NCBI GenBank assembly: GCA_965248695.1
Contig: CBDFKD010000002.1
Coordinates: 5,152,001 to 5,216,000, forward strand
Length of the DNA: 64,000 nt
DNA from: Acidobacteriota bacterium
GTDB taxonomy: Bacteria; Acidobacteriota; UBA890; WLXD01
Direction: 5' to 3'
How positions within the stretch are numbered: position 1 is the first letter of the stretch; the number at the start of each line of letters is the position of its first letter. Below are positions 47,116-63,360 of this stretch, piece after piece. Position numbers and translations under genes: made by a program. Under the pieces are notes generated by a model, which saw only the letters and a list, made by a program, of their open reading frames with translations, searched no databases and had not been told where the DNA came from.

Positions 47116-47137
47116 TCGGCTGGGTCCACAATGATGA

Positions 47138-47174: not shown

Positions 47175-47197
47175 CACACCCCCTAGGTGACAAAGCG

Positions 47198-47910: not shown

Positions 47911-47914
47911 CGAT

Positions 47915-48271
47915 ATGGGCTTGGAGAGTCTCGTTGCCTCCGGTGTGGCGCTGGCCAACAGCCTCACGAGCGACCTGCAGCACGACGTGGTCCACGAAGC
48001 GTATGAAGGCCCCAATGACCAGGGGGCACCGACGTATGGCTCAGCGGTACAGCGGCCAGCGCTCGTGGAGCACAGGCAGCGACAGGTGCGCGGCGACGAG
48101 GGCAACGTGGTGATGGCGCGGGCCAAGGTGAGCTTTCTGCACCCGGTGCGGATCGGTCCGTTGGATCGGATCACGCTACCGGACGGCACGACGGGGCCGA
48201 TCCTGGATATCGAGGGGATGGTGAATGGCTCCACCGGGGCACCCTACATGCTCGAGGTGTGGCTGGGATGA
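47915..48271 (+). CDS. Putative head closure protein
   Basis: Synteny and size; G.PTYG and DRITLPDG. Confidence 0.6.
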   Translation: MGLESLVASGVALANSLTSDLQHDVVHEAYEGPNDQGAPTYGSAVQRPALVEHRQRQVRGDEGNVVMARAKVSFLHPVRIGPLDRITLPDGTTGPILDIEGMVNGSTGAPYMLEVWLG

Positions 48272-48639
48272 GCGTACGGATCGAGGGGTTGTCTGAGCTG
48301 AGGCGCAAGCTGGGGGCCGTAACGGCTCGCATGCCGAGCAAGATCGAGGCGGCGTTGCACCGGGAGGCTCAAAAGATCGCCACCAAGAGCCGTCGGCGAA
48401 CCCCGGTGGATACCGGCGCACTACGTGCCAGCCACAACGTGGAGGCGCCCAGGCGGTCGGGTCGGGATGTATCGGTGCGGATCGGTGTTGGGGGGCCGGC
48501 GGTGAGCTACGCACACCGCGTACACGAGGACCTAGAGGCGCGCCACACGGTGGGCGAGGCGAAGTTTCTGGAGAACTCCGTGACCGAGGCGATTCCAGGG
48601 ATGGCGGCGCGGATCGGCAAGGGGTTGTTGGAGCGCTGA
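48268..48639 (+). CDS. HK97 gp10-like neck protein
   Basis: PVDTGALRAS, YAHRVHE, AKFLE motifs. Confidence 0.8.
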   Translation: MSVRIEGLSELRRKLGAVTARMPSKIEAALHREAQKIATKSRRRTPVDTGALRASHNVEAPRRSGRDVSVRIGVGGPAVSYAHRVHEDLEARHTVGEAKFLENSVTEAIPGMAARIGKGLLER

Positions 48640-49031
48640 TGGCCTTTCTGCAGGAGGTGAAGAGCTACTTGGTCACCGAGAGCATCACGGATCCGATCTA
48701 TAGGGGAACGATGCCGGCGACGCCGGATACGGCGGTGGCGCTGTACCAGTACCCCGGGGAGGCGCCGTCGCGGGGGTTCGGGGTCACCGGCGGGGTGGCC
48801 TACGAGCGGCCGCGGCTGCAAGTCGTGGTGCGCGGTGCACCGCACGACCACGACACGCCGCTGGCCACCGCCACGAGTATCCGTGACGCGCTGGTGAAGG
48901 TTCAGGGCACCGAGCTGTCCGGAACGCTGTACCACTGGATCAGCCCTCTACAAGACCCGGGACTGTTCAAGCGCGACGAAAAAGAGCGCGTCTTGATCGT
49001 CTTTAACTGCCGCACGGAGAAGCACCGATGA
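48639..49031 (+). CDS. Tail terminator / minor capsid-type protein
   Basis: MP.TPD.AV, P.LQV.VRG, DEKER..FN. Confidence 0.7.
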   Translation: MAFLQEVKSYLVTESITDPIYRGTMPATPDTAVALYQYPGEAPSRGFGVTGGVAYERPRLQVVVRGAPHDHDTPLATATSIRDALVKVQGTELSGTLYHWISPLQDPGLFKRDEKERVLIVFNCRTEKHR

Positions 49032-49216
49032 CCGAAGCGGGGCCTGAAACAGATGCTCACAGCAGTCGGCTCGTGGATGCTCGCGGCAACGCGATCCCCA
49101 CTCATTTAGATGATGGATCGTGCCCGCAATGCGGGGCCTCGGAGGACAGGCAGCAGAAAGCCTTCGGAGGTACGAGCTGGTGTTTGAAGTGCGGGCATAA
49201 CTACAGGAGCGACTGA
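49028..49216 (+). CDS. Small zinc-ribbon protein
   Basis: CPQCG and CLKCG; ATGA-coupled. Confidence 0.55.
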   Translation: MTEAGPETDAHSSRLVDARGNAIPTHLDDGSCPQCGASEDRQQKAFGGTSWCLKCGHNYRSD

Positions 49217-49220
49217 TCTC

Positions 49221-49487
49221 ATGGCTACCCAAAAGCTGCGCGTGACGAACCGTCGCGGCGCCATCACGTATCCCATCGATCCGAAGGCCGTGCAGGCGAT
49301 CGCTAAGGCGGGTGGGCTATCGCGCATGGGCGCCAAACAGCGCGCCGGGATCGAGCTTAGGACCGTCGAGGCTGGGGGCGACTGCTCCGATATGCCCAAG
49401 AAGCTGCAACAGGTTCAGATCCAGTCCGGCAACGTCGAGATCGTCACGCCGCGCTTCAAGGCGAAGTCTCAACGGGGAGGTAAGTAA
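49221..49487 (+). CDS. Phage hypothetical protein
   Basis: AGGAG RBS; TAATG overlap with next gene. Confidence 0.6.
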   Translation: MATQKLRVTNRRGAITYPIDPKAVQAIAKAGGLSRMGAKQRAGIELRTVEAGGDCSDMPKKLQQVQIQSGNVEIVTPRFKAKSQRGGK

Positions 49488-50224
49488 TGGCACGCCACGG
49501 TCCCGCCGATGTGTTCCTTACGGTGGATGGCTACGACCTGACGGCCGCGAGTCCACAGCAGCTATCCGAAACGGTCACCGTCCCCACCGTGCGTACCGAT
49601 GGGCTGGGAGATGGGTGGCAAAAGCACACGCCCATCGGTGTGCGCCAAGTGGAGCTGAGCATTGAGGGAGCGTTCTTTGATACCGGAGCCAACAACAGCC
49701 ACGCGGCGCTAGGGGGCTCGGTGCCGAGCTCGGTGCAGGCGGTACCGCGCCTGCTCGTGTACGGCCCCTCCAGGGGCGTGGGGGATGCGTGCGTGGGTCT
49801 GTCGGGTCTGTATCAGCAGAGTTACCAGGTAATGATGTCGCAAGGCGATCTACACCGAGCCAACGCCACATACCTGGTGACCGGGCAGCGCGACGAGTGT
49901 GTGCTTTTGCAGCCGCTGGAAGCCAAAACGGCCGACTGGAATACCGAGAGCCAGACGCTGGACAACGGTGCCAGTTCGGCCAACGGCGCTGTGGGGTACC
50001 TCGTCGTGAACGCCGCTGCGGGCATCACGGGCTTGTCGGTCAAGATCCGCGACTCGGCCGATAACACAGTGTTCGCAGATCTCATTACGTTCACCAACAA
50101 CGTCTCGGCTCCGTTCGCCGAACGCCTCGGTGCAACCGGCACGGTGGATCGCTACATCGCCGTGAGTGGCGCGCTGACGGGTACCGGCTCGATCACCTCA
50201 CTGATCGCAATGTCTCGTTTGTAA
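49487..50224 (+). CDS. Tail tube-like protein with C-terminal extra beta domain
   Basis: Shares GD.W..HTP.G.R.V and DT..N..H with the next gene. Confidence 0.6.
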   Translation: MARHGPADVFLTVDGYDLTAASPQQLSETVTVPTVRTDGLGDGWQKHTPIGVRQVELSIEGAFFDTGANNSHAALGGSVPSSVQAVPRLLVYGPSRGVGDACVGLSGLYQQSYQVMMSQGDLHRANATYLVTGQRDECVLLQPLEAKTADWNTESQTLDNGASSANGAVGYLVVNAAAGITGLSVKIRDSADNTVFADLITFTNNVSAPFAERLGATGTVDRYIAVSGALTGTGSITSLIAMSRL

Positions 50225-50266
50225 TCGACAACAACGGCCCGCAATGCGGGCGGGAGAAAGACAACG

Positions 50267-50689
50267 ATGCCTGGAAAGTACGGCTCCTCATCGGTATCGG
50301 TGACCATCGAGGATGCTCCCGGTGGGACGGCCCGCGACATCTCCAACTACTTGCTCGAAGGGGTCGATCCACAGATCGAGGCGGCGTTTGTGGAGACCAC
50401 CACCTACGGGGATGCCTGGGGAGAGCACACGCCCACGGGCATGAGGATGGTGAACCAGCTCACCTTCAATCTGATCTGGGACACGAGCACGAACGGCCCG
50501 CACGACATCTTCAAGGATGTCGATGATGGTCCCCAGGATGACGGCCGCGAGGTTGTCATTACGGCCGGTGACGGTAAGACCCTCACGGGCGATGTGCGGG
50601 TGGTGAGCTTCCAGGTGGTGATGAGTGCCGAGGACATCCACAAGGCGGTCGTGGTGCTGCAGCCGACCGGCGCGTGGACCTGGGCGTAA
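50267..50689 (+). CDS. Tail tube (major tail) protein
   Basis: 140 aa, ETTTYGD motif, directly before chaperone and tape measure genes. Confidence 0.7.
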   Translation: MPGKYGSSSVSVTIEDAPGGTARDISNYLLEGVDPQIEAAFVETTTYGDAWGEHTPTGMRMVNQLTFNLIWDTSTNGPHDIFKDVDDGPQDDGREVVITAGDGKTLTGDVRVVSFQVVMSAEDIHKAVVVLQPTGAWTWA

Positions 50690-50718
50690 GAGCAGCCAAA
50701 GACAAAGGAGAAACGTAG

Positions 50719-51126
50719 ATGTTGGTGACAGGAGAGCCCGTACAGCGGGAGATTCCACACGAGCCGGGGCAGCACTTTCTACTCAACCGGCTCTCGTGGA
50801 AGCAGCTGCGCAAAGCGCGCAGCCTGCAGGAGGATTATTCCCGCGAGTCCGCTAAGGCTTGGGGAGCGGAGTTCCTTGAGGTGCTTTCGAAGGGTGGCGA
50901 CAGAGCCGAGGGGGAGATTCGCAAGGTGCTCCAAGAGCAGCGCTATCAGGCGGCCAACTACGACACGGGCTATCTGATCGACATGGGCGTGGCGGCCTGG
51001 TCCTACGATGCCTCCTGCGACTCCGAGAACAAGGCGGCGCTGGATGAGCGCACCACACAGTGGGCCGCTCAGGAAATCATCGATCTGACCATGCCTCCGT
51101 CAGAGGCTCAGGAGGGGGAAGCCTAG
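50719..51126 (+). CDS. Tail assembly chaperone (gpG-like)
   Basis: AAGGAG RBS; between tube and tape measure; ends at slippery GGGGGAA. Confidence 0.72.
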   Translation: MLVTGEPVQREIPHEPGQHFLLNRLSWKQLRKARSLQEDYSRESAKAWGAEFLEVLSKGGDRAEGEIRKVLQEQRYQAANYDTGYLIDMGVAAWSYDASCDSENKAALDERTTQWAAQEIIDLTMPPSEAQEGEA

Positions 51127-51491
51127 TCCGGCTGTATCGCCACTTCGAGGGTATTGGTGATGAGCCGGTGCCCGAGGCGTGGTTCATCAGTCGGCTATGT
51201 GAGGAGTTTGGATGCACGCCACTGCAGGTGGTGGAGGATCTCGAAAACGACCCGGAGCGCTGGATGCTGCGCATCCTGCCGCTGCGGGCTTTGGCGCGCG
51301 CGTACCAAAGCTACAAGGCGGCTCAATCCAAGAAAGAACTTGGCAAGGCCATCCATCAAGACCCGTGGGTGCGGCGGGTCGTCGAGATCGACTTTGCCGA
51401 GAAGCGACGGCAGATAGAAGCCAACAAGCAAGGCGGCGACGAGGATGATTCCGATCGGGGTGCTCGAGGCGATCCTGCGGCTGCGGGATGA
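51114..51491 (+). CDS. gpT-like extension made by -1 programmed frameshift
   Basis: -1 frame open after G GGG GAA (51114-51120): SLVRLYRHF...RLCEEFGCTP. Confidence 0.68.
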   Translation, partial: GGSLVRLYRHFEGIGDEPVPEAWFISRLCEEFGCTPLQVVEDLENDPERWMLRILPLRALARAYQSYKAAQSKKELGKAIHQDPWVRRVVEIDFAEKRRQIEANKQGGDEDDSDRGARGDPAAAG

Positions 51492-54400
51492 GATGAGCCC
51501 GAAGCTGCAGGTCGCCGGCGAGCAGCTGCAGCAGACGGGCCGGTCCATGACCAGAGTCGGTGCCGGGCTGACGGCGGGGCTGACGTTGCCCATCGCTGGG
51601 GTTGGCATCGCGGCGATTAAGGCGGCGACCGACTTCAACAAGGGAATGGCCAACGTCGCCACGCTGATCCCCGGCAACACCGAGCGTGTCAAGGAGCTGA
51701 AGCGCTCGGTGCAGGACATGGCTGTAGCCACCGGCAAGAGCACGACCGACATCTCAGAAGGTCTGTATCAGGTCGTTTCCGCCTTCGGCGATACCGCCGA
51801 CACGGCGAAGATTCTCCAGACGAACGTCGAAGCCGCAGCAGCTGGCTTGGCCACCACGAGCGAGGCAATTGCGCTTACATCGGCCGTCACCAAAGCCTAC
51901 GGGGACACAAGCGCGGAGGCCGTACAGGCTGCTGCCGACATGGCGTTCGTGACCGTCAAGCTTGGCCAAACATCGTTTCCTGAGCTGGCTGCGTCTATCG
52001 GCAAGGTCGCGATCGGCGCCGCCGGCTTGAAGATCAGCCAGCAAGAACTGAACGCCGTGTTTGCCACGATGACAGGCGTAACCGGCGGCGCTGCGGAGGT
52101 GGCCACGCAGTTCCGCGGCGCGATGACCGGCCTGAAGAAACCGAGCGACGACATGATCGTCGCGCTCGACGAGATCGGTTTCTCAACAGAGGTGTACGGC
52201 GCTCGAGCAGGAGAGGCCGCAGTCGAGAGTCTCGGCTTTCAAGGCACGCTGGCAGCTCTAACGGAGGCCTCGGGCGGCAACGCAGCCGCGATGGCGAAGC
52301 TGTTCGGGTCAACCGAGAGCTGGGACTTCATCGCCGGCCTCGCAGGCTCGCAGGCCGAGACGTTCGGCAGCAAGTTGGGCGAGTTGGCCGAGTTCTCTGG
52401 TGCGGCAACCGAAGCGCTCAACGAGCAACAACGCGGCGTCAACGAGGCCGGCTTCCATTGGGAGGTGCTGAAGCAGAAGGTGGTCGTGGCTGCGCAGAAG
52501 TTCGGAGACGAGCTCTTGCCGATCGTGATGCGCGTCGGGGAGAGTTTGCGACCGTTGTTGGACATGGTGCTCCGGGGCGCGGAATGGTTCGGCAAGCTGC
52601 CGGTGCCGGTGCAGACGGCAGGGGTGATGTTAGCGGGGCTGGCGGCGGCGGCGGGGCCGGTGCTGATCGTGCTCGGAACGATGGCCTCCTCGATTGGAAC
52701 GCTACTGCCGCTGCTTACAGGAGCAGGTTTGGCGGGAGCGGCAAGCAGCGTCATTGCTGTCCTTACTGGCCCGGTGGGGTGGGTTCTGGCGATCGGCGCC
52801 GTGGTCAGTGCCCTCGGTTTTCTCGTGCTCAAGGTACAGGAATCGAATCGGATTCTCGAAGAACACAAGCGTCGGGCCGAAGAGATTTCGGAGGCGGCGC
52901 GCGACTACGAACGCGAGGCGCAGCTGCTTGCCGGCACCTTTCGCGGTGCTCTGAGTCAGGGGCTGGATGCGGCGCGTCAGGCGACCGATGAATATCTCGA
53001 CTCGCTGGAACTTGGCGCCGAAGGTGTCGTGGAGCTTTCCAGTGGCCTGCGGCTGCTGCTGAACGACAACAAGCTAACGAGAGAGCAGTTCAATGAGCTG
53101 TCCGGTGCGCTCGCCGAGTACCGGCAGCGGTCCAAGGATGCTGCTTTACAGCTACCAATTTTGAGTGCGGAACAGGATCGAGCTAGGGAGGCGGCAAGGC
53201 TTCTCGCAGAGGCGCTGGAGGGCTTCACGCTTGCCGAAGATGTTGCCAAGGATATCGACAAGCTGCGCCTAGCGGTCGAGTCCGCTGAAGCGCCGACCGT
53301 GCAGTTGGAGGCCGCTTGGAAGGACCTGGTAGCAAAGATGCAAGAGGCCGGATTGGAGATACCGGTCTCCATGAGCGCCATCGCCGACAGCCTCAATATC
53401 GTCGAGCGGAGCTTCGAGCGCGCCCGCGAGGAACAGGAAAAGCGATGGGACACAGCCAACCTCAAAGCGCTGAATGATGGATTCGACCAGCTCCAAACCG
53501 AGCTGCTTGAAGCCGAAAAAGCTGCGCTCCAAGCCGGGGAAGCGCTGAAGAATTTTGTTATCCAGCCGCCGGACCCGAGCACCATCCCACAAATCGATGC
53601 TGTCACCCTGGCGGCCGAGAGGCTCGGGCTTAAGGCGGTCAACGTCGAGGAGCTGAATAAGAGCTTTGCTGACCTGCAAGCCGTCGTTGCAGCTGGGGGC
53701 TTCGCCCCATCGGATCTGAAGCGCATCTACGACGATCTGTACCGGACGTTCCAACAGCTGGGGCCATTGACCGACGAGCAGGCCGCTGCATTTGAACGGC
53801 TCCGCGGGCAGATCGAGCAACAACCAAACCTGTCGTTTTTCGGCAAGATCGGCGATTCGCTCAAGTCCGTCTTTGGCAAGCTGGCAGAGCTGGGCTCGGT
53901 GTTCACCAACGCACTCGGGACGCTGTTCACGGATGGCTTAAGCGGCGCTCTAGGAGCTCTCCAAACCGGCCTGTCGCAGCTGCTGTCCAAGGCGTTCAAC
54001 AGCGTCATTCCGGGGTTGGGTACCTTGGCGGCACCGCTGATCTCGGCGATCGAGAACCTGCTCTCCGGCATGTTCGGCAAGGCCCACGCGGCCGATCACG
54101 TAGCCGAGCAGTTTGGCATCGCCCTGTCCGACGGGCTCGCCAAGGCCATCGACGACCTCGCCGCCAGTCAGTTCCAAGGCAACTTCGATGCGGCTTTCCG
54201 CTCGATGATGGCGCAGGCGATCCAAGAGGCTTCGATCACCACAGAGGCGGAGCTATCCAAGTGGGTCACGCTGACCCATCAGATCCTCTCGTCTGTGGAC
54301 GAGGGGTTCATGAGCCTGCAGCAGGCCGTCGAGTCGATGTCGGACTCCTGGTTGGCTCTGGTGCCCGCGATGGAGGCGACGGGAGCGTCGGCGATGGGCC

Positions 54401-56301
54401 TGCAGGCGCAGATATCGGATCTGATATCTCGGGGCGTTGACCTGGACACGCTCGCCACACAGCTGCAGCCTGTGATCTCGGCGATGTTCGATTCCGGCAT
54501 CTCCGGAGCGCAAGAGCTCGTGGACTGGCTCAACACCATGGGTGTGGAGATCGACGGCGTTGCCACGAGCGCCGAGGCCGCCGTCGCCGCCATCGAGGCC
54601 GCGTTCGGTGCCGGTGACTTCAGCGCCATGAGTACCGCGATCCGCGACGCGATCGCGGCGGGTGTTGATCTGTCGAGTCTACAAGGGCTGCTGACGGACG
54701 TGATGGCCCAGTACAAGGACCTGGTACTGGGAGCCTCCCAGGAAGTTGTCGCCGGGGTGGAGGCGCTGTTTGCCACCGTACGGCGAGAAGTCGAGGTGCT
54801 GGCCGAGGACGGCTCTACCCAGACCATCGAGCAGCTGCGGCTCACCAAGCGGGAGGCGGAGTTTGCCGCCTCGGCCCTGCTGGTCACCTTCGAGCAGATG
54901 CGTGCCGCTGGCGTGCCGCTCACAGAGATCTTCGAGGCCATGGGAGATCAGATCACCCAGTTGGCTGACAACTTCAAAGGCGCACTGCCCCCGGTGCTCG
55001 CCGAGGTGGACGCGCTGTTTTCGGCCATGCAGGGGAGCGCCGCCAAGGCGATCGAGAAGGTTGACGCCATCGGCGGCTCTATCGGCGCGCTGGGGGAAAT
55101 GGGCCTGCTGAGCGCCGGGCAGCTGGATTTCTTTGGCGACAAGATCGACCGCGCCTACGCCAAGCTCATCGAAGGCGGTGCGGGCTCGGAGCAAGCGATG
55201 GCGCTGCTTGGGCCGCAGCTGCGGCAGCTGATTGACCTGTCCGAGCAATACGGTTTCAAGATCGACCGCAACACCCGGGCGCTGATCGATCAGGCTGATG
55301 CGTCGGGTCTGCTTCCGCCAGCGATCGAGCCGGTCGAGGATATCTTCGGCGACATCCGCTCGGTGATCATCCTGTTGGCTGAGTCGCTCGGTGTGCAGGT
55401 ACCGGCAGCGATCAAGCAGGCAGCAGATGCGGCGCAAGAGGCTGAGAACCGGATCAAGAGCCCCTTCAAGCGCGCCTTCATGGAGATGGCCGCGGATGCC
55501 GGCTGGGCAGCGCGAGAGACGCGCGGGGTATGGAGACAGCTGTCGCCGGATCTGCGGCGCGTGTTCGAGGAGGGTGGTGAAGTTGGCCGCGCCCAGTTCA
55601 AACAAATCGCCATGGCCGCCGGGCTGAGCGCGGCACAGGTGCGGCAGCTGTGGGGCTCGGACATGCGCACCGTCGAAGACATCTTCGGCCACGCCGGAAC
55701 GACCGGCGAGGAGGAAAACGTCAAGGTGGGCGAGGCGGCCGAGCGCGAGGCGAAGCGGTCGGCGCGCGAGATGCGCATCGCATTCATCGACCGGGTCATC
55801 CCGGCGCTGCGCCGCATCGGACAGGTCGGTGAGATTGAGGCGAAGCGGCTGGGGGACGCGTTCGTGGGGGCGGCAAAGGACTCTGCGGCCGAGTGGGAAG
55901 CGACGCAGCGAGCCACCGTCGGTAACTCTTCGATTCTGGATATCTCACGACGCGGCATCGAAGCGGCCGAGGTGCTCGGTGGTAGTCAGGTCGAAGCGGC
56001 CATGCGTGCCGCGCACACCTGGAGCCTCGCCTCGGACACGATTGCCCGGTCGATGAACCGTACGGAATCAGCGGTTTCCGCGATTCCCTCGTCGGTGTCC
56101 GTGTCGGTGGGCACGGGGCCAAGGGATTCGATTCCCGCACCGGTCGCGGCTGCATCGGCCCCCGCACCATCCAGGCGCCCCGACGAGACGTTATTGCGCG
56201 AACTGCTCCATGAGCTCCGTGCGCTCCGGCAGGACCAGCGCACCTACTTGCCGGACGCGCTGCGCACCGCTGCCCGGCACGGGAAGCAGACGAGCAGCTG
56301 A
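51445..56301 (+). CDS. Tape measure protein (1618 aa)
   Basis: TP901-type N-terminal core (LTAGLTLPI..F...MA.V, GLYQVVSA), hydrophobic segment, long Ala-rich helical body. Confidence 0.92.
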   Translation: MIPIGVLEAILRLRDEMSPKLQVAGEQLQQTGRSMTRVGAGLTAGLTLPIAGVGIAAIKAATDFNKGMANVATLIPGNTERVKELKRSVQDMAVATGKSTTDISEGLYQVVSAFGDTADTAKILQTNVEAAAAGLATTSEAIALTSAVTKAYGDTSAEAVQAAADMAFVTVKLGQTSFPELAASIGKVAIGAAGLKISQQELNAVFATMTGVTGGAAEVATQFRGAMTGLKKPSDDMIVALDEIGFSTEVYGARAGEAAVESLGFQGTLAALTEASGGNAAAMAKLFGSTESWDFIAGLAGSQAETFGSKLGELAEFSGAATEALNEQQRGVNEAGFHWEVLKQKVVVAAQKFGDELLPIVMRVGESLRPLLDMVLRGAEWFGKLPVPVQTAGVMLAGLAAAAGPVLIVLGTMASSIGTLLPLLTGAGLAGAASSVIAVLTGPVGWVLAIGAVVSALGFLVLKVQESNRILEEHKRRAEEISEAARDYEREAQLLAGTFRGALSQGLDAARQATDEYLDSLELGAEGVVELSSGLRLLLNDNKLTREQFNELSGALAEYRQRSKDAALQLPILSAEQDRAREAARLLAEALEGFTLAEDVAKDIDKLRLAVESAEAPTVQLEAAWKDLVAKMQEAGLEIPVSMSAIADSLNIVERSFERAREEQEKRWDTANLKALNDGFDQLQTELLEAEKAALQAGEALKNFVIQPPDPSTIPQIDAVTLAAERLGLKAVNVEELNKSFADLQAVVAAGGFAPSDLKRIYDDLYRTFQQLGPLTDEQAAAFERLRGQIEQQPNLSFFGKIGDSLKSVFGKLAELGSVFTNALGTLFTDGLSGALGALQTGLSQLLSKAFNSVIPGLGTLAAPLISAIENLLSGMFGKAHAADHVAEQFGIALSDGLAKAIDDLAASQFQGNFDAAFRSMMAQAIQEASITTEAELSKWVTLTHQILSSVDEGFMSLQQAVESMSDSWLALVPAMEATGASAMGLQAQISDLISRGVDLDTLATQLQPVISAMFDSGISGAQELVDWLNTMGVEIDGVATSAEAAVAAIEAAFGAGDFSAMSTAIRDAIAAGVDLSSLQGLLTDVMAQYKDLVLGASQEVVAGVEALFATVRREVEVLAEDGSTQTIEQLRLTKREAEFAASALLVTFEQMRAAGVPLTEIFEAMGDQITQLADNFKGALPPVLAEVDALFSAMQGSAAKAIEKVDAIGGSIGALGEMGLLSAGQLDFFGDKIDRAYAKLIEGGAGSEQAMALLGPQLRQLIDLSEQYGFKIDRNTRALIDQADASGLLPPAIEPVEDIFGDIRSVIILLAESLGVQVPAAIKQAADAAQEAENRIKSPFKRAFMEMAADAGWAARETRGVWRQLSPDLRRVFEEGGEVGRAQFKQIAMAAGLSAAQVRQLWGSDMRTVEDIFGHAGTTGEEENVKVGEAAEREAKRSAREMRIAFIDRVIPALRRIGQVGEIEAKRLGDAFVGAAKDSAAEWEATQRATVGNSSILDISRRGIEAAEVLGGSQVEAAMRAAHTWSLASDTIARSMNRTESAVSAIPSSVSVSVGTGPRDSIPAPVAAASAPAPSRRPDETLLRELLHELRALRQDQRTYLPDALRTAARHGKQTSS

Positions 56302-57848
56302 TGGCGGAGGTGGCGATGGAGTTTTACCTGTCAGGATCCTGGAGGGACGTGAGCGTCGACGTGCTCGCTGCCCACCCGATCAGCTGGCAGCGCGGCATTC
56401 CCGGCTCCGGGCCGCAAGATCTGATCGGGCAGCCGGGTCGCATGAACTGGGTGATGAACAACGGCAACAACTCCGGCGGTGTTGCCGGCTACTACTCACC
56501 CGGGCACGCCAGCGTGCGGACCGGGTTCAAGCACGGTATGCGTGTACGGCTGACGATCGATGCAGGCAACGACTCCGCCGGCAACAACGTCAGCCGCACC
56601 GTGTTCGCCGGCAAGCTCAAGGAGGCCAACCCGATACCGGGCGCCTACACGGTGCACGAAACACACTGCATCGCCTGTGACTGGCTGGAGGACCTGGCGG
56701 ATCTGAAGGACGTGCGCCTGAGCCTACGGGAAAACGTTCGCTCCGATCAGTTAATCGATGACCTCGTGGCGCTAGTGGCCATGGCGCCGACCAGCAAGAG
56801 CCTCGATGTGGGCATCGACACCTACACGTTCGCCTTTGACGATCTCGGGGACAAAGATCCCAGCCCGATGTCGCTGGCGCACGCCATCTGCATGAGCGAA
56901 CGGGGCTACCTGTATGTGCGGGGTAACACGACCGATGGCGAGACGCTGCGGTTCGAAAACCGTCACGCGCGCGCCACCAAGAGCCTGGATTTGACGCTCA
57001 CCGCCTCGCAGGTGCGCGACATCCGCGTGCCTTCGGCCATGGATCGGATCTACAACCACGTCGAAGCGACGGCCCACCCGCGCAACAAGGGCAGCACCAT
57101 CATCGTGCTCGTGAGCCTGGATGAAGAGATCGAACTCCGATCTGGACAGACCGTTGAACTGTTCGTCGCCTACACCGATCCGAACAACAAGGACGCCCGT
57201 ATAGGTGGCGCCAACATGGTCGCACCGGTATCGGGTACTGATTACACGGCCCGTGACGCCGCCAACGGTGGGGGGAGTCTCATCACCTCCCAGTTTGACC
57301 TATCCGACACGGAGTTTCAGGGCTCCGGGTGCAATATCGTGGCCACCAATAACGCCGACAAAACAGGCTACCTGCGAGGCCCCGGCACCAGCCCAGGCAT
57401 GCAGATACGGGGCAAGCCGCTGTATCGGTACTCGCCCGTATCGCAGCGCGGCAAAGGCTCCACCGACAGCATCACCGACTACGGAGAGCGGTGGTTGCGC
57501 ATCGACATGCCCTACCAGGACAACGTTCTGGTGGCGCAAGACGTAGCGAACTTCACCGCCAACGTCTATGACGGGATCCTCAACACGCCGACCGAAGTGT
57601 CACCAATGACCGAGAGGCCTGCTCTGTTGGTGTCCTGTCTGCCGGTGGATATTGGCTCGCGCATCAAGGTGACCGAGGCGCAGTCCGGGGTGGATGGCGC
57701 GGAGGTGTTCATCAACGGCGTCCGCGGTCGGGTGCTCAACAAGACGGTGAGCTTGGAGTGGATTGTGGCCCCGGCTGATACGACCGCCGTGTTCATTCTG
57801 GATGATCCGGTGGCCGGGATCCTGGACGCCAACGCACTGGGGTACTGA
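56301..57848 (+). CDS. Tail tip / baseplate hub-like protein
   Basis: TGATG-coupled to tape measure gene; beta-rich; SI..YG.R motif. Confidence 0.65.
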   Translation: MAEVAMEFYLSGSWRDVSVDVLAAHPISWQRGIPGSGPQDLIGQPGRMNWVMNNGNNSGGVAGYYSPGHASVRTGFKHGMRVRLTIDAGNDSAGNNVSRTVFAGKLKEANPIPGAYTVHETHCIACDWLEDLADLKDVRLSLRENVRSDQLIDDLVALVAMAPTSKSLDVGIDTYTFAFDDLGDKDPSPMSLAHAICMSERGYLYVRGNTTDGETLRFENRHARATKSLDLTLTASQVRDIRVPSAMDRIYNHVEATAHPRNKGSTIIVLVSLDEEIELRSGQTVELFVAYTDPNNKDARIGGANMVAPVSGTDYTARDAANGGGSLITSQFDLSDTEFQGSGCNIVATNNADKTGYLRGPGTSPGMQIRGKPLYRYSPVSQRGKGSTDSITDYGERWLRIDMPYQDNVLVAQDVANFTANVYDGILNTPTEVSPMTERPALLVSCLPVDIGSRIKVTEAQSGVDGAEVFINGVRGRVLNKTVSLEWIVAPADTTAVFILDDPVAGILDANALGY

Positions 57849-58243
57849 TGATGCACCGCTACATACTGGGCATTCGGGACCAGCACTTGGTCGTTGACGA
57901 GACCAGGTTGCTTGCCAAGCTCGACCAACAGGTCGCCAAGTCACAGCGTCTGGGAGCGCGCATCCAGGTGCACCCGGAGGGCGAGGAGATTGTGGCGTAC
58001 TGCAACCACGGCCGCTGGGTGGCGGACTGCCCGTGCGGCGGGGGCGTGGCGGTGGAGCCGGAGTTTGACAAGGCAGCCTGCTTCGGGTGCGGGGCGGTGT
58101 ACTCGTCAGTCCGGTTCCCTCGGCACCGTGACCAGATCGAGCGACAGCTGCTGAAGCGTCCCCGGATGGACAACCGCAACTGGGAGCCGGGCGAGACGGT
58201 ACGGCAGCTGCGTCGGGACAACCGCAGCCGGGGGATCAGGTAG
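57848..58243 (+). CDS. Cys-rich phage tail-region protein
   Basis: NHGRWVADCPCG, CFGCG, RNWEPGETV..L..N. Confidence 0.6.
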   Translation: MMHRYILGIRDQHLVVDETRLLAKLDQQVAKSQRLGARIQVHPEGEEIVAYCNHGRWVADCPCGGGVAVEPEFDKAACFGCGAVYSSVRFPRHRDQIERQLLKRPRMDNRNWEPGETVRQLRRDNRSRGIR

Positions 58244-59491
58244 ATGGCCTGGACGACTCCCAAGACATTCGTGGCCGGTGCCGTGCTGACGGCGGCGGAG
58301 CTGAACACGCATATGCGTGACAACCTGAACCATCTGTTCGACAGCATCGACGATGTCGGCACGCTCTTCAACATCGCCTCCAAGACGGCTGCCTACACCG
58401 CCACCACCGCCGACACGGTACTGCTGTGCGATGCCTCCTCGGGTGCCTTCACTCTCACGCTGCCGGCAGCCTCGGGCAACGCTGGGCTGTACTACCTGAT
58501 CAAGAAGATCGACTCCTCCGCCAACGCCATCACCATCGATGCCAACGGCTCAGAGACCATCGATGGGGCCACGACCTACGTGTCGGAGATGGAGGATCAA
58601 GCGGTACTGATCGTTTGCGATGGCTCCAACTGGGAGACGCTATCGCACACCGCCAACAGTCTGCTGAACGTGGTCTCCAAGACCAGCGCCTATACGGCCT
58701 CGGCCACCGTAGACCAGGTGATCTTGTGCGATGCTTCTTCGGCAGCTTTCACCCTCACGCTGCCAGCCGCTTCGAGCAACGCCGGGGTGTACCTGTACAT
58801 CAAAAAGATCGACTCCTCCGCCAACGCGGTGACGATCGATGGCAATGCCTCAGAGACCATCGATGGGGCCACCACGTTCGTGGTGAACTACGAGGATCAG
58901 GCCGTTGTCCTCGCGTGCGACGGGACCAACTGGGAGACGCTAGCGCGGACCAGCACGCCGGTCTCCGCAATGGCCTTGATCGCCGCGGCGACGCCAGCCA
59001 GCGGAACGATCTCGATGAGCTCCCTCACCACCACCGACTACGACGCGCTGTGGCTGGTGGTTACGGGTCTGGAGTCCGATACCGATCAGGATGAAGTAGA
59101 GATGCAGCTCAATGCCACCACCGCGGGCTACCACTATGCGGACGAGATCGTCAGCGAGACGACCATCGAGCAATCCTTCGGCGCCGGCAACGCCGGCTCG
59201 ATCAAGCTGCTGTCCAATAGCGTCGGGGCCCGGAGGCTGGGCAATGCCGCCGATGAGGGGGCGTTCTTTTCGGTCTGGATCGACAACGACCACCACGCCA
59301 ACGAGTTTCTGGTGTTTTACCAAGGCTCCTATGTGGACGCTGACGGCAGGCTCTGGTCCTCGCTCGGCGGCAGCGGCTGGGTGGATCTGGGCACCGCCAC
59401 CTCGATCACGCAGATTGACATCAAGGCCACCACGGGCAACCTGGATGCAGGCACAGCACGTTTGTACGGGCTCCGAAAGGCGGCGGCATGA
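58244..59491 (+). CDS. Tail fibre / receptor-binding protein with two internal repeats
   Basis: MAWTTP...LTAAELN..RDNL anchor; ~95-aa repeats at 58364-58645 and 58661-58945. Confidence 0.78.
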   Translation: MAWTTPKTFVAGAVLTAAELNTHMRDNLNHLFDSIDDVGTLFNIASKTAAYTATTADTVLLCDASSGAFTLTLPAASGNAGLYYLIKKIDSSANAITIDANGSETIDGATTYVSEMEDQAVLIVCDGSNWETLSHTANSLLNVVSKTSAYTASATVDQVILCDASSAAFTLTLPAASSNAGVYLYIKKIDSSANAVTIDGNASETIDGATTFVVNYEDQAVVLACDGTNWETLARTSTPVSAMALIAAATPASGTISMSSLTTTDYDALWLVVTGLESDTDQDEVEMQLNATTAGYHYADEIVSETTIEQSFGAGNAGSIKLLSNSVGARRLGNAADEGAFFSVWIDNDHHANEFLVFYQGSYVDADGRLWSSLGGSGWVDLGTATSITQIDIKATTGNLDAGTARLYGLRKAAA

Positions 59492-59916
59492 ACTACAAGC
59501 TCCTGGTGCGGGATGAGGACGGAGAGATCCTGGCCTCAAGGCGCGCACCGAAACAGCCGGATGGCTCCTATGAAGGGCAGCCCCTGGACTACGTCGCGCC
59601 CAACGATCCGAAGGCCGTGCGCTACGGCATCGACGAGGTTGTGGCCACGGACGTGTGGACGGGCTCCGGCGCCCTGCGCTCCGGCTACTCGGTGGTTGTG
59701 ATCGACTCCGCAGTGCACCCGAAGATGACAGCGCACAAGGTGCTGGAGGGGCAGCTGGTGGACAAGAGTGCCTCGGAGCGGGAGGCTTCGGAGCGGGCCT
59801 CCAAGCCGGCCGAGGAGCGCCGGCGCGAGGATGCGCTCGCGTGGCTGGCAGAAAACCCCGATGCGTTGGTGCCCGCCTCACGAGTGTTGCAGTTGATGGG
59901 GCAGGCGGATGCATGA
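59488..59916 (+). CDS. Hypothetical protein (possible tail fibre chaperone)
   Basis: ATGA-coupled to the fibre gene. Confidence 0.5.
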   Translation: MNYKLLVRDEDGEILASRRAPKQPDGSYEGQPLDYVAPNDPKAVRYGIDEVVATDVWTGSGALRSGYSVVVIDSAVHPKMTAHKVLEGQLVDKSASEREASERASKPAEERRREDALAWLAENPDALVPASRVLQLMGQADA

Positions 59917-60130
59917 GGGGGTCGCGCAGCTGGACTACGAGGCTCTGGAGCGGCTGTATTGGCAGCTACCGGAGCCGATGCGGAGCCAGTTTCAGCAGCA
60001 ACCGTGCATCCAGAAGGTACGGTGCCCACAGTGCCAGAGTCGACTGCTTGATCTACGAGGTAGCATCGCGCACATTAAGTGCAGGTGCGGCAAGGTCCAC
60101 AAGCTGGGCCGGCTGAGCCTGACAATCTAA
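59909..60130 (+). CDS. Mu Com-like zinc-finger RNA-binding regulator
   Basis: VRCPQCQSRLL...HIKCRCGK fits the Com pattern RCxxCxxLL...IxCxxC (second pair CxC here). Confidence 0.68.
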   Translation: MHEGVAQLDYEALERLYWQLPEPMRSQFQQQPCIQKVRCPQCQSRLLDLRGSIAHIKCRCGKVHKLGRLSLTI

Positions 60131-60174
60131 GAGCCCCGAGAGGGCCTAAAACCTAACCGAGACCCGAGAGGTCC
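60131..60174 (+). promoter_or_regulatory. Two GAGNNCC-NN-GAGNNCC boxes (putative Com-type RNA sites)
   Basis: GAGCCCCGAGAGGGCC at 60131-60146 and GAGACCCGAGAGGTCC at 60159-60174. Confidence 0.65.
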
Positions 60175-60198
60175 AGGCGTATTCGCCTGGGCCTTTTT
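60170..60198 (+). terminator. Intrinsic terminator upstream of lysis region
   Basis: 10-bp stem GGTCCAGGCG / CGCCTGGGCC (one G-U), TATT loop, then TTTTT. Confidence 0.8.
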
Positions 60199-60214
60199 GT
60201 ATGCAGAGACTCCG

Positions 60215-61249
60215 ATGACGAGCAACATGAATCGCCGGCAGCTGCTCAAGAGGGGCGGCGCCAGCAGCGCGCTGCTGGGCGTGGGCGACCTTTCCCCGCT
60301 GCTGGCCCCACGCATACTCGTGGGTCCCTTCGTACAGGAACTGCTCACGTACCGGCGCGCCACCCAGCTGCGACTCGTGCGTCAGGCCCAAGAGCTCGGT
60401 CTGGATGCCCTCGGCTTTTGCCTGTGGCCCATCGTGCCGGGGGGCGTGGAGATAATCCGCTACCCGGTGCCGTATGCCGGCTACGACCTGTCCCGGCCCA
60501 CGGTGCCGTACCAGCGACGCCTGCACGAGACCGTGAGTGCCTCGGTGGCGGCCGGCATCCGGCCCTACGTCTACGGGCCGATGTTCCCGGACCTACGCCG
60601 TTACCACCCGATGTTCGAGCGCATGAGGTTCGGTGGCCGCGGCATCCGTGCGGCGGACTGGGCCACTTGGAGCCCGCTGGCGCACGATGCCTGGAGCCAT
60701 TTCCTGTTGCGCATCCACGCCGAGTACGGCGACGCGGTGGCCTACGTGGACGGTGTGGAGCCATTCACGCGCTACCTGCCGCCGCCCCCGAACCACTTCA
60801 CGGCTCAGATGAGGCAGGCGCTCCCGGGCATCCTGTCGGCGGGCATCCACGAGCGTCACTTTAACCCCGGCGACTCCGACATCCCGCATGCCCGCGTCGT
60901 GGCTTCCGACGGCTGGGGCCGCAGCACGCGGCGCTGGCACTGGGGCCGCCCGACAACAGGGACGGGTCCCGTCCGCCGGCCCTTGGCGGCGCTGCCCCCG
61001 GGTAAGGCATCCGACCAGCGAACCGCTGAGGGCCAGGTGGCCTCCTACTTTCGTGGCGCTGCCGATACGGCCCAGGCGCAGGGCGCCGAGGCGTTCCTGG
61101 TGCTGCACACCCCTGGCTGGGTGGTGTCCTCGGAAAAGGAGGCCAAGGCGCAGGCCAACGACCCGGACCACTACCAGGGTCACCCGGCGGTGGCGAGTCT
61201 GCATGCACCGCCCTTCGGGGCCATCTATCAACAGCTGGCGGCGGCATGA
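60215..61249 (+). CDS. Phage protein with twin-arginine-like N-terminus, possibly glycoside hydrolase-like TIM barrel
   Basis: MNRRQLLK; GVEPF resembles the clan GH-A NEP motif; start 60215 or 60227. Confidence 0.5.
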   Translation: MTSNMNRRQLLKRGGASSALLGVGDLSPLLAPRILVGPFVQELLTYRRATQLRLVRQAQELGLDALGFCLWPIVPGGVEIIRYPVPYAGYDLSRPTVPYQRRLHETVSASVAAGIRPYVYGPMFPDLRRYHPMFERMRFGGRGIRAADWATWSPLAHDAWSHFLLRIHAEYGDAVAYVDGVEPFTRYLPPPPNHFTAQMRQALPGILSAGIHERHFNPGDSDIPHARVVASDGWGRSTRRWHWGRPTTGTGPVRRPLAALPPGKASDQRTAEGQVASYFRGAADTAQAQGAEAFLVLHTPGWVVSSEKEAKAQANDPDHYQGHPAVASLHAPPFGAIYQQLAAA

Positions 61250-61554
61250 GCGAGGAGCGGCTAGCGCGCATCGAGACGGCCGTGGCGCGCACGGAAGCCA
61301 ACGTGGCTGCCCTCAAAGGGGATGTCGAAACGCTCAATGAACGGCTGTGGAGGGGCAACGGCGGCAAGAGCCTCATGGTTCGCATAGAGCTGCTTGAGCA
61401 AACCCAGGTGACCACGGAGCACATCGAGCAGTTAGAAGCAGATCGAGAGAAACGAGAGGCAGCTCGCCGCTGGCACATCCGACACCTATGGGCCGCCATC
61501 GGAGCCGTGGTGGCCACCATCGTAGCCGGCTGGATCTTCGGAGGAGGGAGTTGA
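61246..61554 (+). CDS. Coiled-coil protein with C-terminal TM helix (lysis accessory / holin-like)
   Basis: Heptad pattern then LWAAIGAVVATIVAGWIF. Confidence 0.6.
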   Translation: MSEERLARIETAVARTEANVAALKGDVETLNERLWRGNGGKSLMVRIELLEQTQVTTEHIEQLEADREKREAARRWHIRHLWAAIGAVVATIVAGWIFGGGS

Positions 61555-61757
61555 TGAGCAAATTTTCGTTGTCTCAACGTGTAATGAAGCATCTGGGCCC
61601 GTGGCAGCGCGCGCAGTCGCTCGCAGTGCGGATCGCTAAGGCGGTGGTGCTGGTGTGCCTAGCGTTCGGCGTGGTGTTCGCCGGGTTTTTCGGCAAGGTG
61701 CTGATCGTCGTCGTGCTGCTCGGCTGGGCGGCGCTGGCGGTGCTGGTGGGGCTATGA
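61554..61757 (+). CDS. Small two-TM membrane protein (holin candidate)
   Basis: TGATG overlap, GGAG RBS, basic N-terminus and two hydrophobic segments. Confidence 0.55.
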   Translation: MSKFSLSQRVMKHLGPWQRAQSLAVRIAKAVVLVCLAFGVVFAGFFGKVLIVVVLLGWAALAVLVGL

Positions 61758-61788
61758 GACTCGCCGGCCTGCTCGCCTGGGGGCTGCC

Positions 61789-62145
61789 ATGAGCGACGAC
61801 AAGCGCCTGATTGCCGTGTTGGGAGGGCTAACAGGCGTCGGTGTCCTGCTGCTACTGCTGGGGCTGGCCTCCGAGGTCCGCACGGCGACCGGTGTCTCAC
61901 CCACGAATCTGGGGCTCGTGCTACAGGCATTCGGCAAACGCCTTCTGGCCGTGACGCTTGGCCTGGGGGTGCACCAGGTGATCGACCGCGCCTTCCTGCC
62001 GTTCCTGCGCATTGAGCAGGCCTTTCGCCGGGAGGGCAAGTTCTCCACCGATGCCATGAGCAATGAGGAGCGCATGGTGTGGGTCGCCGGTTGGTTCTTG
62101 ACCTTGGCGGTCATCGTCCTCGCCTTCGCCTCGGCGGCGAGCTAA
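61789..62145 (+). CDS. Holin candidate (2-3 TM)
   Basis: Hydrophobic helices; TAATG-coupled to endolysin. Confidence 0.6.
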   Translation: MSDDKRLIAVLGGLTGVGVLLLLLGLASEVRTATGVSPTNLGLVLQAFGKRLLAVTLGLGVHQVIDRAFLPFLRIEQAFRREGKFSTDAMSNEERMVWVAGWFLTLAVIVLAFASAAS

Positions 62146-62663
62146 TGGCCGGCGCGATCCAGGTCACAGCCGCGCTGTTGGCGGTGTTCTATGGCGAGCT
62201 CGCCGGCGCGGGGTTGCCACTCGATCCGTTCGAGTCGCGGTTTCGGGCGCAGATCCAAGTGGAGTCGGCTTGGCGGCCCGAGGCGCGCTCCAAGTACGCC
62301 GCCGGACTCGCACAGTTCACCCCTGCCACGTGGAGCGACATCGCGCCGTACACCGAGCCCTCGTGCGCTGGCGCCCCCGAGACTGACCCGGCCTGCTCGA
62401 TCCGCTCGCAGATCGTGTACATGCGCCGACTATTGATCCGATACAGCGACTCGGCGACCCCGGAGGACCAGTGGGCGTTTGCCTCGGCTGCCTACAACGG
62501 CGGTCCTGGATGGATCAGCCGCGAGAAGGCGCGGTGTGCGGCGGCTCCAGACTGCGAGCCGCGCCGCTGGTGGGGCCACGTCGAGCTGCACTGTTTACGC
62601 GCCGCGTGGGCGTGCCGTGAAAACCGCGCCTACCCGCGCAAAATCGTCGCGCGGCTGCCGTAG
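62145..62663 (+). CDS. Endolysin, SLT lytic transglycosylase
   Basis: QIQVES catalytic Glu, AAGLAQFTPAT, AYNGG, ENRAY motifs. Confidence 0.88.
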   Translation: MAGAIQVTAALLAVFYGELAGAGLPLDPFESRFRAQIQVESAWRPEARSKYAAGLAQFTPATWSDIAPYTEPSCAGAPETDPACSIRSQIVYMRRLLIRYSDSATPEDQWAFASAAYNGGPGWISREKARCAAAPDCEPRRWWGHVELHCLRAAWACRENRAYPRKIVARLP

Positions 62664-62670
62664 CGAAAGC

Positions 62671-63360
62671 ATGAGACTCCGCACTGCCATTCTCCTCATC
62701 GCCCTCGCCACCCTCGTGGGCTTCGGTGCCGGATGGTGGCACTTCGCACCCTCGCTGCTGTCGCCTGAGGGGCTGGTCGGGCTGGCCTCGGGGCTGCTGG
62801 ATCAGCAGCGCCGCGAGTCGCTGGCCCAGTACGAGGCGATGCAGGCGACCCACGCGGCCGAGATCGCCGCCTATGAAGCCGACCTCTCCGCTACAGAACG
62901 AGCGCTCGGCCAGCTGGGTCTCCGACTCGCCGAGCGCGATGCAGAGGCGGTCGAGGCGGAGCAGGCCCTTGGCCGCACTCTCCAGCTGGCGGCACAGCGC
63001 GAGGCGCAGCTGCGCGATGAGATCTTGGCGGCCGTCCCCGGGCTCGAGGTGCCCCTGGAGGAGCTACAGGCACAGCACCGCGGCGTGGTGAAGGGGTTCG
63101 AGCTACGGGTCAAGGCGCTGCAGCAGAGCGTCGAGACTCGTGACCAGCTGATCGTGAACCTGCGACAGCAGCTGGGTACCACTCGCCAGCTATACGAGAC
63201 AACGCAAGCGCGGCTCGACCTGGCGGAGGCGCGGCGCAAGAGCCTCGAAGGACGGCGCGTGCGGCTAGCTCCAGCGCTGCTGATCGGCGGGATACGCGAC
63301 CTGAGCGGCACAGACGGCTGGAGGGCTGGCGTCGCCGTCGGGATTGCGATCACCTGGTAG
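62671..63360 (+). CDS. Spanin-like protein (N-terminal TM, coiled coil, C-terminal beta-hairpin ending in Trp)
   Basis: Follows endolysin; ILLIALATLVGFGAGWW, long heptad region, GVAVGIAITW end. Confidence 0.6.
   Translation: MRLRTAILLIALATLVGFGAGWWHFAPSLLSPEGLVGLASGLLDQQRRESLAQYEAMQATHAAEIAAYEADLSATERALGQLGLRLAERDAEAVEAEQALGRTLQLAAQREAQLRDEILAAVPGLEVPLEELQAQHRGVVKGFELRVKALQQSVETRDQLIVNLRQQLGTTRQLYETTQARLDLAEARRKSLEGRRVRLAPALLIGGIRDLSGTDGWRAGVAVGIAITW

Follow-up and report, generated by a model that had tools for sequence, protein, structure and literature searches.

A putative Com-type antitermination switch in front of the lysis genes of an Acidobacteriota prophage

The late region of a siphovirus-like prophage of an Acidobacteriota bacterium contains two tandem RNA hairpins that match the published target of Com, the RNA-binding protein of bacteriophage Mu, and the second of these hairpins shares 4 nucleotides (nt) with an intrinsic terminator located in front of the predicted lysis genes. 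The hairpins, called box 1 and box 2, directly follow the gene of a zinc-ribbon protein of 73 amino acids (aa). The locus belongs to a 64,000-nt stretch of DNA (assembly GCA_965248695.1, contig CBDFKD010000002.1, positions 5,152,001 to 5,216,000 of the forward strand), which is called the window here. The protein, the boxes, and the terminator may form an antiterminator switch operated by a Com-type protein, a reading of the sequence that we hold with moderate confidence. The same layout recurs in unalignable sequence in a second prophage of the same genome; the window version is called cassette A and the other one cassette B.

Results and discussion

Box 2 and the intrinsic terminator exclude each other

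The initial annotation had described the zinc-ribbon gene with its CPQC...LL...IKCRC motif, the two boxes, the terminator, and their overlap, and all of these elements were found in place:

59909..60130, + strand: 73-aa open reading frame (ORF) of the cassette A protein, with a coding-type profile of guanine-cytosine (GC) content and the motif CPQC...LL...IKCRC
60023..60088, + strand: zinc-ribbon core from Cys39 to Cys60, located in the translation, with a weak in-register alignment to Mu Com
60131..60146, + strand: box 1, GAGCCCCGAGAGGGCC, with a Com-type hairpin at 60133-60145, stem GCCC/GGGC and loop CGAGA
60159..60174, + strand: box 2, GAGACCCGAGAGGTCC, with a Com-type hairpin at 60161-60173, stem GACC/GGUC and loop CGAGA
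60170..60198, + strand: intrinsic terminator with a 10-bp stem at 60170-60193, loop UAUU, and U5 at 60194-60198

Each 16-nt box folds into a hairpin with a 4-bp stem and a 5-nt loop (-5.3 kcal/mol for box 1 and -3.2 kcal/mol for box 2), and the two stems differ by a compensatory change from C-G to A-U. Box 1 adjoins the stop codon of the zinc-ribbon gene, and the hairpins are positioned 28 nt apart. The stem of the terminator contains 10 bp, including one G-U pair (-19.9 kcal/mol); it is GC-rich, abuts the U tract, and lies between genes, as is characteristic of intrinsic terminators. The 3' arm of box 2 (60170-60173) constitutes the first 4 nt of the terminator stem, and therefore the box-2 hairpin and the terminator exclude each other. 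When the RNA is folded freely, the box-1 hairpin and the terminator are selected (-32.7 kcal/mol, z = -3.8, with none of 200 shuffled sequences as good). If box 2 alone is held, the 3' arm of the terminator pairs with the similar 3' half of box 1 (-27.0 kcal/mol), which is a possible reason for the presence of two boxes. Holding both boxes gives -22.4 kcal/mol, compared with -32.7 kcal/mol for the free fold, and leaves a 6-bp upper stem that is separated from the U tract by 4 nt. According to established knowledge, a stem that does not abut the U tract does not cause termination.

The arrangement is rare in the genome. Two copies of the 16-nt box pattern are present in the window, where 0.06 are expected, and the rest of the 5.89-Mb genome has none. 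For the less strict motif in print, GAGNNCC-N2-3-GAGNNCC, there are 112 matches on both strands genome-wide, 15 of which can form a hairpin, and the only non-overlapping tandem pair in the genome is that of the window. Com-type hairpins, according to one fixed definition, are present at 0.21 per kb-strand. The terminator at 60170-60198 was missed by the first terminator scan, and the counts given here come from a separate scan for canonical terminators, which identified 155 in the genome and four in the window, the one at 60170-60198 being the only intergenic one of these four. A small hairpin with a closing C-G pair overlaps the 5' arm in 15 of the 155 terminators, and only at 60170-60198 is it accompanied by an upstream look-alike. 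A match of the terminator to the tail of a small RNA in Rfam is at chance level (E = 0.96) and was rejected. Scans for the box-pair pattern returned seven loci in viral contigs and at least 118 stretches in genome contigs. Almost all of the matches listed are spaced by 27, 36, or 45 nt and represent coding or simple tandem repeats of GC-rich actinobacteria; 19 listed matches have other spacing, and none of the eight that were inspected has an analogous small gene and terminator.

The ATG start candidates of the next gene are 17-30 nt downstream of the terminator, and its TTG candidate overlaps the U tract. A scan of the 44-64 kb region of the window for sigma-70-like promoters, with a consensus that may not apply to this organism, was negative. 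The short gap of 0-30 nt and the negative promoter scan imply that the next gene and the lysis genes coupled to it should be transcribed through the terminator.

The boxes resemble natural targets of Com

The target of Mu Com determined by systematic evolution of ligands by exponential enrichment is bipartite, NGAGNNCC(N)2-3GAGNNCCNN, and the protein binds preferentially to a monomeric hairpin whose loop contains CC-N2-3-GAG, with a stem of 3-4 bp and an invariant C-G closing pair (PMC6483171). The site adjoins the structure that inhibits translation of mom, and Com is documented as an RNA binder for which translational activation is the sole mechanism described in the consulted part of that source (PMC6483171). 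The initial annotation had mentioned a tandem GAGNNCC consensus of Com targets; it is in print (PMC6483171), and the boxes fit it exactly. Both boxes agree with the published motif in sequence, stem length, closing C-G pair, and loop, as far as these are given in the part of PMC6483171 that was consulted.

A tblastn search with Mu Com identified 31 phage records, among which Mu and five others were analysed by one fixed definition of the hairpin:

Mu: one Com-type hairpin (the known site) before the start of mom; downstream gene mom
JD024: two tandem hairpins 20-45 nt before the start; downstream gene Mom-like
UMP151: two tandem hairpins 20-45 nt before the start; downstream gene Dam
B3: two tandem hairpins 20-45 nt before the start; downstream gene Dam
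Mcat3: one hairpin before the next gene; downstream gene for a hypothetical protein
Chuche: no hairpin with a stem of at least 4 bp, linear motif present before the start; downstream gene for a DNA methyltransferase

A larger set of B3-type loci was obtained by scanning IMG/VR with an alignment of six Com proteins, which provided 80 loci, 76 of them distinct (L156-L235). Within 400 nt of the com start, 52 of the 76 loci have two hairpins, 22 have one, two have three, and none is without a hairpin, but the loci are related to one another, so the counts describe a single clade and not independent events. The hairpins reach a density of 4.34 per kb, compared with 0.106 per kb-strand in the background, and the loop is CGAGA in 61 and CGCGA in 38 of 132 hairpins. 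In B3-type com genes, two target-like hairpins in tandem occupy constant sites within the com reading frame, at +107 and +127/129 relative to the start. The loops of the window boxes are both CGAGA, and the copies of the cassette in a second genome, G001, have CGCGA in box 1 in addition to CGAGA. The window boxes thus share both form and loop with natural Com hairpins, and their assignment as Com-type targets, as RNA elements, is well supported by this comparison.

A terminator overlapping the hairpins was found in none of the 76 B3-type loci and in none of the six reference com loci. A weak terminator-like feature is present in four of the 76 loci, always at least 55 nt beyond the hairpins. 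Judged from these sequences, the link to a terminator is the new part of the window locus relative to the Com loci examined.

A second cassette has the same layout in unalignable sequence

The genome (G000) contains a paralogue of the next gene, with 87% identity, at 2.74 Mb of contig C2 in a second prophage (locus L139). Directly upstream of the paralogue is the genome's best sub-threshold match to the Com family PF10122 (Zn_ribbon_Com), with 21.1 bits. The end of the tail-fibre gene and the following 142-aa gene are 99.9% identical between the two prophages up to position 59954, which corresponds to codon 15 of the small ORF, and the alignment resumes at approximately 60264 with an identity of about 90%. 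The joints delimit one further feature of the window:

59955..60263, + strand: exchangeable cassette, unalignable with L139, with a left flank that is 99.9% identical and a right flank that is ~90% identical

Cassette B encodes a zinc ribbon, ...RCWKCDRTLAGHVTRPWSLRCRKCGTLN..., with the pattern CWKC-x16-CRKC, and the likely start of its gene follows a strong Shine-Dalgarno sequence. The gene is followed by the hairpins ggacCCAGCgtcc and ggacCGAGCgtcc, located 31 nt apart, and by a 10-bp terminator, GUCCCGUGCG...CGCACGGGGC, which continues into the U-rich tract UUUCUUUUU. The 5' arm of the terminator starts with the 3' arm of box 2, as it does in the window, and exactly 4 nt are shared in both cassettes. 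The occurrence of one architecture in two sequences that cannot be aligned argues most strongly for a function of the layout, and it suggests that the protein and its RNA elements travel together as a specificity cassette.

The best Pfam family of the cassette B protein is PF10122, with 19.1-21.1 bits (E = 4e-4 to 1.4e-3), which is below the curated cut-off of 22.9 bits, and hhalign gives 52% for the comparison of the protein with Com. Two other matches to PF10122 or the cassette B protein were rejected as spurious, since L009 lies in the ACT/purC region of the host and L149 is antisense within an integrase gene. An unannotated 79-aa ORF with a zinc ribbon is present in Arthrobacter phage Laroye (L150 2986-3225; record 24696-24935). 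It is ~50% identical to the cassette B protein over 33 residues, and the match occurs in 14 Arthrobacter phage records. Downstream of a relative of the cassette B protein with 62% identity (L236 1690-1739), a 52-aa hydrophobic ORF carries two similar small hairpins with the loops CUGACG and CUGAUC, 36 nt apart. The Com family itself is represented in one of 401 genomes of the phylum, at a locus located between portal and protease genes.

The window-type cassette has four occurrences, which are the window, a truncated copy at the start of contig C2, and two copies in genome G001. Conservation of the boxes next to homologues of the protein was assessed on near-identical copies and on one non-homologous cassette. 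One of the copies in G001, L005 (G001:C2:3775188-3778388), contains an insertion of 2 nt immediately ahead of the stop codon of the zinc-ribbon gene, and its open frame has 111 aa, compared with 81 aa in L004; the frame probably runs on through the boxes.

The cassette A protein is a zinc ribbon with a tentative relationship to Com

The cassette A protein consists of an N-terminal part of ~35 aa, predicted to be helical, and of the zinc ribbon CPQC-x15-CRC. The GC content of the three codon positions of ORF 59909-60130 is 0.65/0.39/0.76, as in the adjacent phage genes, and the other two frames of the region do not have a coding-type pattern. Differences between the ORF and the copies in G001 are mostly synonymous. 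The ORF starts within the preceding 142-aa gene, whose stop it overlaps by 8 nt, and therefore there is no room for a separate promoter.

No family match to the protein was found in Pfam, PHROG, or NCBIfam, and a sequence search of the PDB gave no match. A six-frame PF10122 scan of the genome found four places at E ≤ 10, and the cassette A protein is not among them. BLASTP aligned the protein directly with Mu Com in register, with 10 of 27 residues identical (pairwise E = 8e-4). An AlphaFold model of the protein has low confidence (predicted local distance difference test score, pLDDT, of 55.6) and contains two helices followed by four strands. The nearest clusters in the ESM Atlas are Com (0.92), one of them named Com family and one consisting to 100% of PF10122 members, which is a lead and not proof. 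Homology of the cassette A protein to Com, in the sense of membership in the family, is thus unproven on sequence grounds, and a Com-like function would be supported mainly by the RNA boxes and by the parallel with the second cassette.

Proposed mechanism of the switch

Based on the anatomy of the locus, we infer the following mechanism. The cassette A protein would be a divergent Com-type zinc ribbon with RNA-binding activity, encoded by the last cistron of the tail operon, and the two boxes after the stop codon would be its binding hairpins. As long as the protein is absent, the much stronger terminator hairpin probably displaces the hairpin of box 2, and most transcripts would stop at 60198. 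Once the protein has accumulated, the box hairpins would be held, and the lowest 4 bp of the terminator stem, located beside the U tract, would be blocked. RNA polymerase could then read into the glycoside-hydrolase-like gene with the twin-arginine translocation (Tat) signal. The read-through probably continues to the small holin-like genes, the endolysin, and the spanin-like gene, provided that there is no internal promoter. By opening the hairpin, the protein may in addition expose the ribosome-binding region of the gene that follows, in the way that Com acts on mom in Mu.

A role of the switch in timing can be suggested more tentatively, and we regard it as possible but somewhat doubtful. 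The last gene of the tail operon would encode a Com-type factor able to open the terminator in front of the lysis genes, acting as an antiterminator rather than, or besides, as a translational activator, so that lysis would be delayed. At least two specificity alleles, characterised by GAG boxes and GCG boxes, would exist, and recombination would swap the cassette between prophages.

Several observations weigh against a Com-type antiterminator. The search with a Com-family profile that the initial annotation had proposed for its Com-like protein turned out negative, which formally is the first of the refuting results that the annotation had named, as PF10122 does not match the cassette A protein even at E ≤ 10, and thus the likeness of the protein to Com rests on weaker evidence. 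The second knuckle of the protein is CxC and not CxxC, which is one residue short. A comparison with a 15-protein alignment of Mu-type Com by hhalign was in register but reached a probability of only 40%, and BLASTP of the two cassette proteins against each other gave E = 0.35. An HMMER search of 1.84 billion representative proteins identified one real relative of the cassette A protein (94% identity), which was also the only one in a word-index search; six further HMMER matches are long repetitive proteins and were judged spurious. Boxes and a terminator follow the gene in none of the three viral relatives of the cassette B protein (62-64% identity), and the combination is also absent after the gene of the Laroye relative and from the sole Com-family locus of the 401 genomes of the phylum. 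The boxes of cassette B carry GCG, and Mu Com requires the GA of GAG according to the consulted part of PMC6483171. A com stop mutant of P. syringae had unchanged expression of the adjacent levansucrase gene lscB (PMC3899960, consulted in part).

Alternative explanations of the locus

The closest alternative is a purely translational control similar to that in Mu, in which the stem at 60170-60193 would inhibit translation of the next gene, the protein would open it, and the U tract would not be used. The start codons are in agreement with such a role. An in-frame TTG ends the U tract of the window, and two ATG codons with poor Shine-Dalgarno sequences lie 22 and 34 nt beyond the stem. In cassette B, no canonical in-frame start precedes the twin-arginine motif except a GTG inside the stem and a TTG located 8 nt behind it, and a GGGG run resembling a Shine-Dalgarno sequence forms part of the 3' arm of the terminator. 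Because these starts and the GGGG run are in or near the stem, the hairpin could also mask translation, and activation of translation is the one mechanism documented for Com in the part of PMC6483171 that was consulted. However, both non-homologous cassettes keep a GC-rich 10-bp stem that abuts a U-rich tract, a combination that was present at the hairpins in none of the 76 B3-type and six reference loci, and the two ATG starts of the window are beyond the stem. We consider it unlikely that translation is the only level of control. The anatomy is equally compatible with transcriptional and translational control, and both may act; the translational reading and the antiterminator switch are not exclusive.

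The hairpin could also be an ordinary partial terminator that ends the tail operon or attenuates the lysis genes, next to an unrelated zinc ribbon. The boxes would then be stabilising or incidental duplicates, and their near-identity could be explained by a single duplication. The lack of a family match to the cassette A protein and the occurrence of relatives of the cassette B protein without boxes are consistent with this explanation. Nevertheless, the boxes fit a protein-binding motif that was published independently, they match natural Com hairpins down to the loop sequence, and the entire layout recurs in the unalignable cassette. The genomic background of 0.21 hairpins per kb-strand predicts a probability of ~1e-4 for two box-type hairpins in a 70-nt gap. 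An ordinary terminator is therefore a distinctly unlikely explanation of the locus.

The boxes belong to the 3' end of the mRNA from which the protein is translated, a position that would be suitable for autoregulation, in which the protein would bind the hairpins of its own terminated transcript and alter the stability or translation of the tail-operon mRNA, with read-through unaffected. This would leave unexplained why box 2 and the terminator share exactly 4 nt in both cassettes, and in every Com locus examined a regulated gene lies downstream of the hairpins, which makes autoregulation improbable. A function of the boxes as DNA, either as binding sites of a regulator or as a recombination joint, is very improbable, even though NCBI names the family 'Com family DNA-binding transcriptional regulator' and a joint is located nearby at 59954, because the compensatory changes in the stems and the overlap with the terminator arm are features of RNA, the joints at 59954 and ~60264 are away from the boxes, and Com is documented as an RNA binder (PMC6483171, consulted in part).

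Genes downstream of the terminator

The genes that would be controlled by the antiterminator switch are:

60197..61249, + strand: next gene, ~344-350 aa, with an RRQLLK twin-arginine-like N-terminus identified by eye; candidate starts TTG 60197, ATG 60215, and ATG 60227
61246..62145, + strand: three small genes of 102 aa (weak holin/hemolysin matches in PHROG), 89 aa, and 118 aa
62079..62663, + strand: SLT lytic transglycosylase endolysin, likely start ATG 62145 (PF01464, E = 4.9e-11; phrog_669, E = 5.9e-26)
62671..63360, + strand: spanin-like protein, likely start ATG 62671 in ORF 62479-63360, with weak family matches only

The next gene has no match in Pfam or NCBIfam, and its structure model is unusable (pLDDT 36.2). 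Its nearest clusters in the ESM Atlas are DUF4434 and Tat signal proteins (0.92), but the number of shared features is low, so the label of an exported glycoside-hydrolase-like protein is only a lead. Relatives are few (n = 6 in the search), with P0032-34 at 45-48% identity. No distant homologues were found in the viral scan, and the phylum scan found none beyond G000 and G001; two metagenome loci with homologues of the gene have 55 and 19 nt of upstream sequence. The 118-aa gene has no PHROG match and only sub-cut-off matches in Pfam and NCBIfam. The spanin-like protein has a hydrophobic N-terminus and a coiled-coil-like body rich in Ala, Glu, Leu, and Gln, as judged by eye.

The absence of a mom gene remarked on in the initial annotation is borne out, as there is no mom-like gene 3' of the boxes, and the next gene is not DNA-modification cargo of the mom or dam type. 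The literature lists other cargo for com-like genes, and therefore DNA modification may not be a defining property of the cargo of the Com family.

Prophage setting

According to Pfam and PHROG assignments, the region of the window at ~36.9-63.4 kb is the late region of a siphovirus-like prophage, with genes in the order of two DNA methyltransferases, TerL, portal, head morphogenesis, scaffold, major head, major tail, tape measure, tail genes, and SLT endolysin. The siphovirus label of the initial annotation agrees with the presence of TerL, portal, major head, and major tail proteins and of a tape measure protein of 1618 aa. The two methyltransferase genes (36949-39556) start the phage region directly 3' of ABC-transporter genes of the host, and the second one is a fusion with a ParB-like N-terminal domain. 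Upstream of them, no integrase or replication genes were seen within the window.

The zinc-ribbon gene is preceded by:

59488..59916, + strand: 142-aa gene without an assigned function, following the 415-aa tail-fibre-like gene, with no Pfam or PHROG match

The tail-fibre-like protein of 415 aa (58244-59491) contains two long internal repeats of ~100 aa each, read from the translation, with the pattern ...AYTA..LCDASS.AFTLTLPAAS.NAG.Y..IKKIDSSANA.TID.N.SETIDGATT.V.... A 131-aa ORF among the tail genes (57848-58243) contains CPCGGG...CFGCG, which resembles a further small zinc-binding motif, and it has no family match above threshold.

The genome contains several mosaic relatives of the prophage, on contig C2 at 1-25 kb and at 0.70, 2.31, 2.74, and 3.84 Mb, identified by comparison with positions 37327-60040 of the window. 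The head genes (40109-51302) are 98-99% identical to C2:2.306-2.318 Mb, and the tail genes (54067-60040) are 98% identical to C2:1-5976, where the copy ends inside the zinc-ribbon gene at the contig end. Outside the prophage, the window has a 1.4-kb element at 11525-12928, apparently an insertion sequence, with a 449-aa ORF and ~19 copies on contig C2 that are 99.7-100% identical.

Comparison with known systems and significance

The locus resembles the com-mom region of Mu in that the gene of a small Cys4 zinc protein immediately precedes the gene to be controlled, after the tail-fibre genes, and in that a short target hairpin with a CC-N2-3-GAG loop and a C-G closing pair lies beside an inhibitory hairpin. 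In contrast to Mu, the inhibitory hairpin of the window is a canonical intrinsic terminator with a U tract, and 4 nt of it are common to the target hairpin. There are two target hairpins, which are located after the stop codon, whereas that of Mu is inside the gene, and the cargo is a glycoside-hydrolase-like gene with a lysis cassette instead of a DNA-modification gene. The cassette A protein also differs from Mu Com by its failure to match PF10122, its CxC second knuckle, and its 35-aa N-terminal extension. The com-dam loci of the B3 type share with the window tandem 4-bp hairpins with CGAGA or CGCGA loops just before the downstream gene, but their hairpins are spaced by 20-22 nt, compared with 28 nt in the window, and are inside the com frame, and the downstream gene encodes a DNA methylase or a Mom-like enzyme.

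Cargo similar to that of the window has already been described in Pseudomonas. Com-like PF10122 genes precede ~90% of L-type bacteriocin genes and other tailocin cargo, the lytic enzyme of tailocin lysis cassettes in some strains, and glycosyl hydrolase genes in P. syringae, and their general role is still to be explored (PMC6240691, consulted in part). A mobile element of ~500 bp in P. syringae contains a promoter, com, and the first 48 bp of a hydrolase or levansucrase gene (PMC3899960, consulted in part). The com-like genes and PAPE elements of Pseudomonas are thus similar to the window both in their non-mom cargo, which includes glycosyl hydrolases and a lysis-cassette enzyme, and in the mobility of the com unit. 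They differ in that the proteins are bona fide members of PF10122, and the consulted parts of PMC6240691 and PMC3899960 propose neither a mechanism nor a terminator.

Antiterminators controlled by protein binding to RNA are represented by BglG, SacY, and LicT, which stabilise a weak ribonucleic antiterminator (RAT) hairpin overlapping the 5' arm of a terminator, so that the terminator cannot form. These proteins contain CAT and PRD domains and sense sugars. The window is analogous in that the putative antiterminator hairpin shares 60170-60173 with the 5' arm of the terminator, and the same applies to cassette B. However, the protein is a zinc ribbon, unrelated in fold and without a Pfam match to CAT or PRD, and the likely signal would be the accumulation of a late phage protein. 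Lysis genes located behind a terminator that is overcome by a phage protein are also known from lambda. The Q and N proteins of lambda modify RNA polymerase processively, whereas the anatomy of the window points to a local competition between two RNA structures.

To our knowledge, Com has for decades been known only as the translational activator of mom, and a limited literature search for Com-type antitermination found no description of a version coupled to a terminator. The window locus provides a concrete and testable design, in which an intrinsic terminator before the lysis genes is joined to a target hairpin of the Com type, and two natural specificity variants, cassettes A and B, are on hand. 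If the proposed antitermination is true, protein-dependent RNA-switch antiterminators would gain a zinc-ribbon class, and the locus would represent a simple route by which a phage may delay lysis until its structural genes have been expressed.

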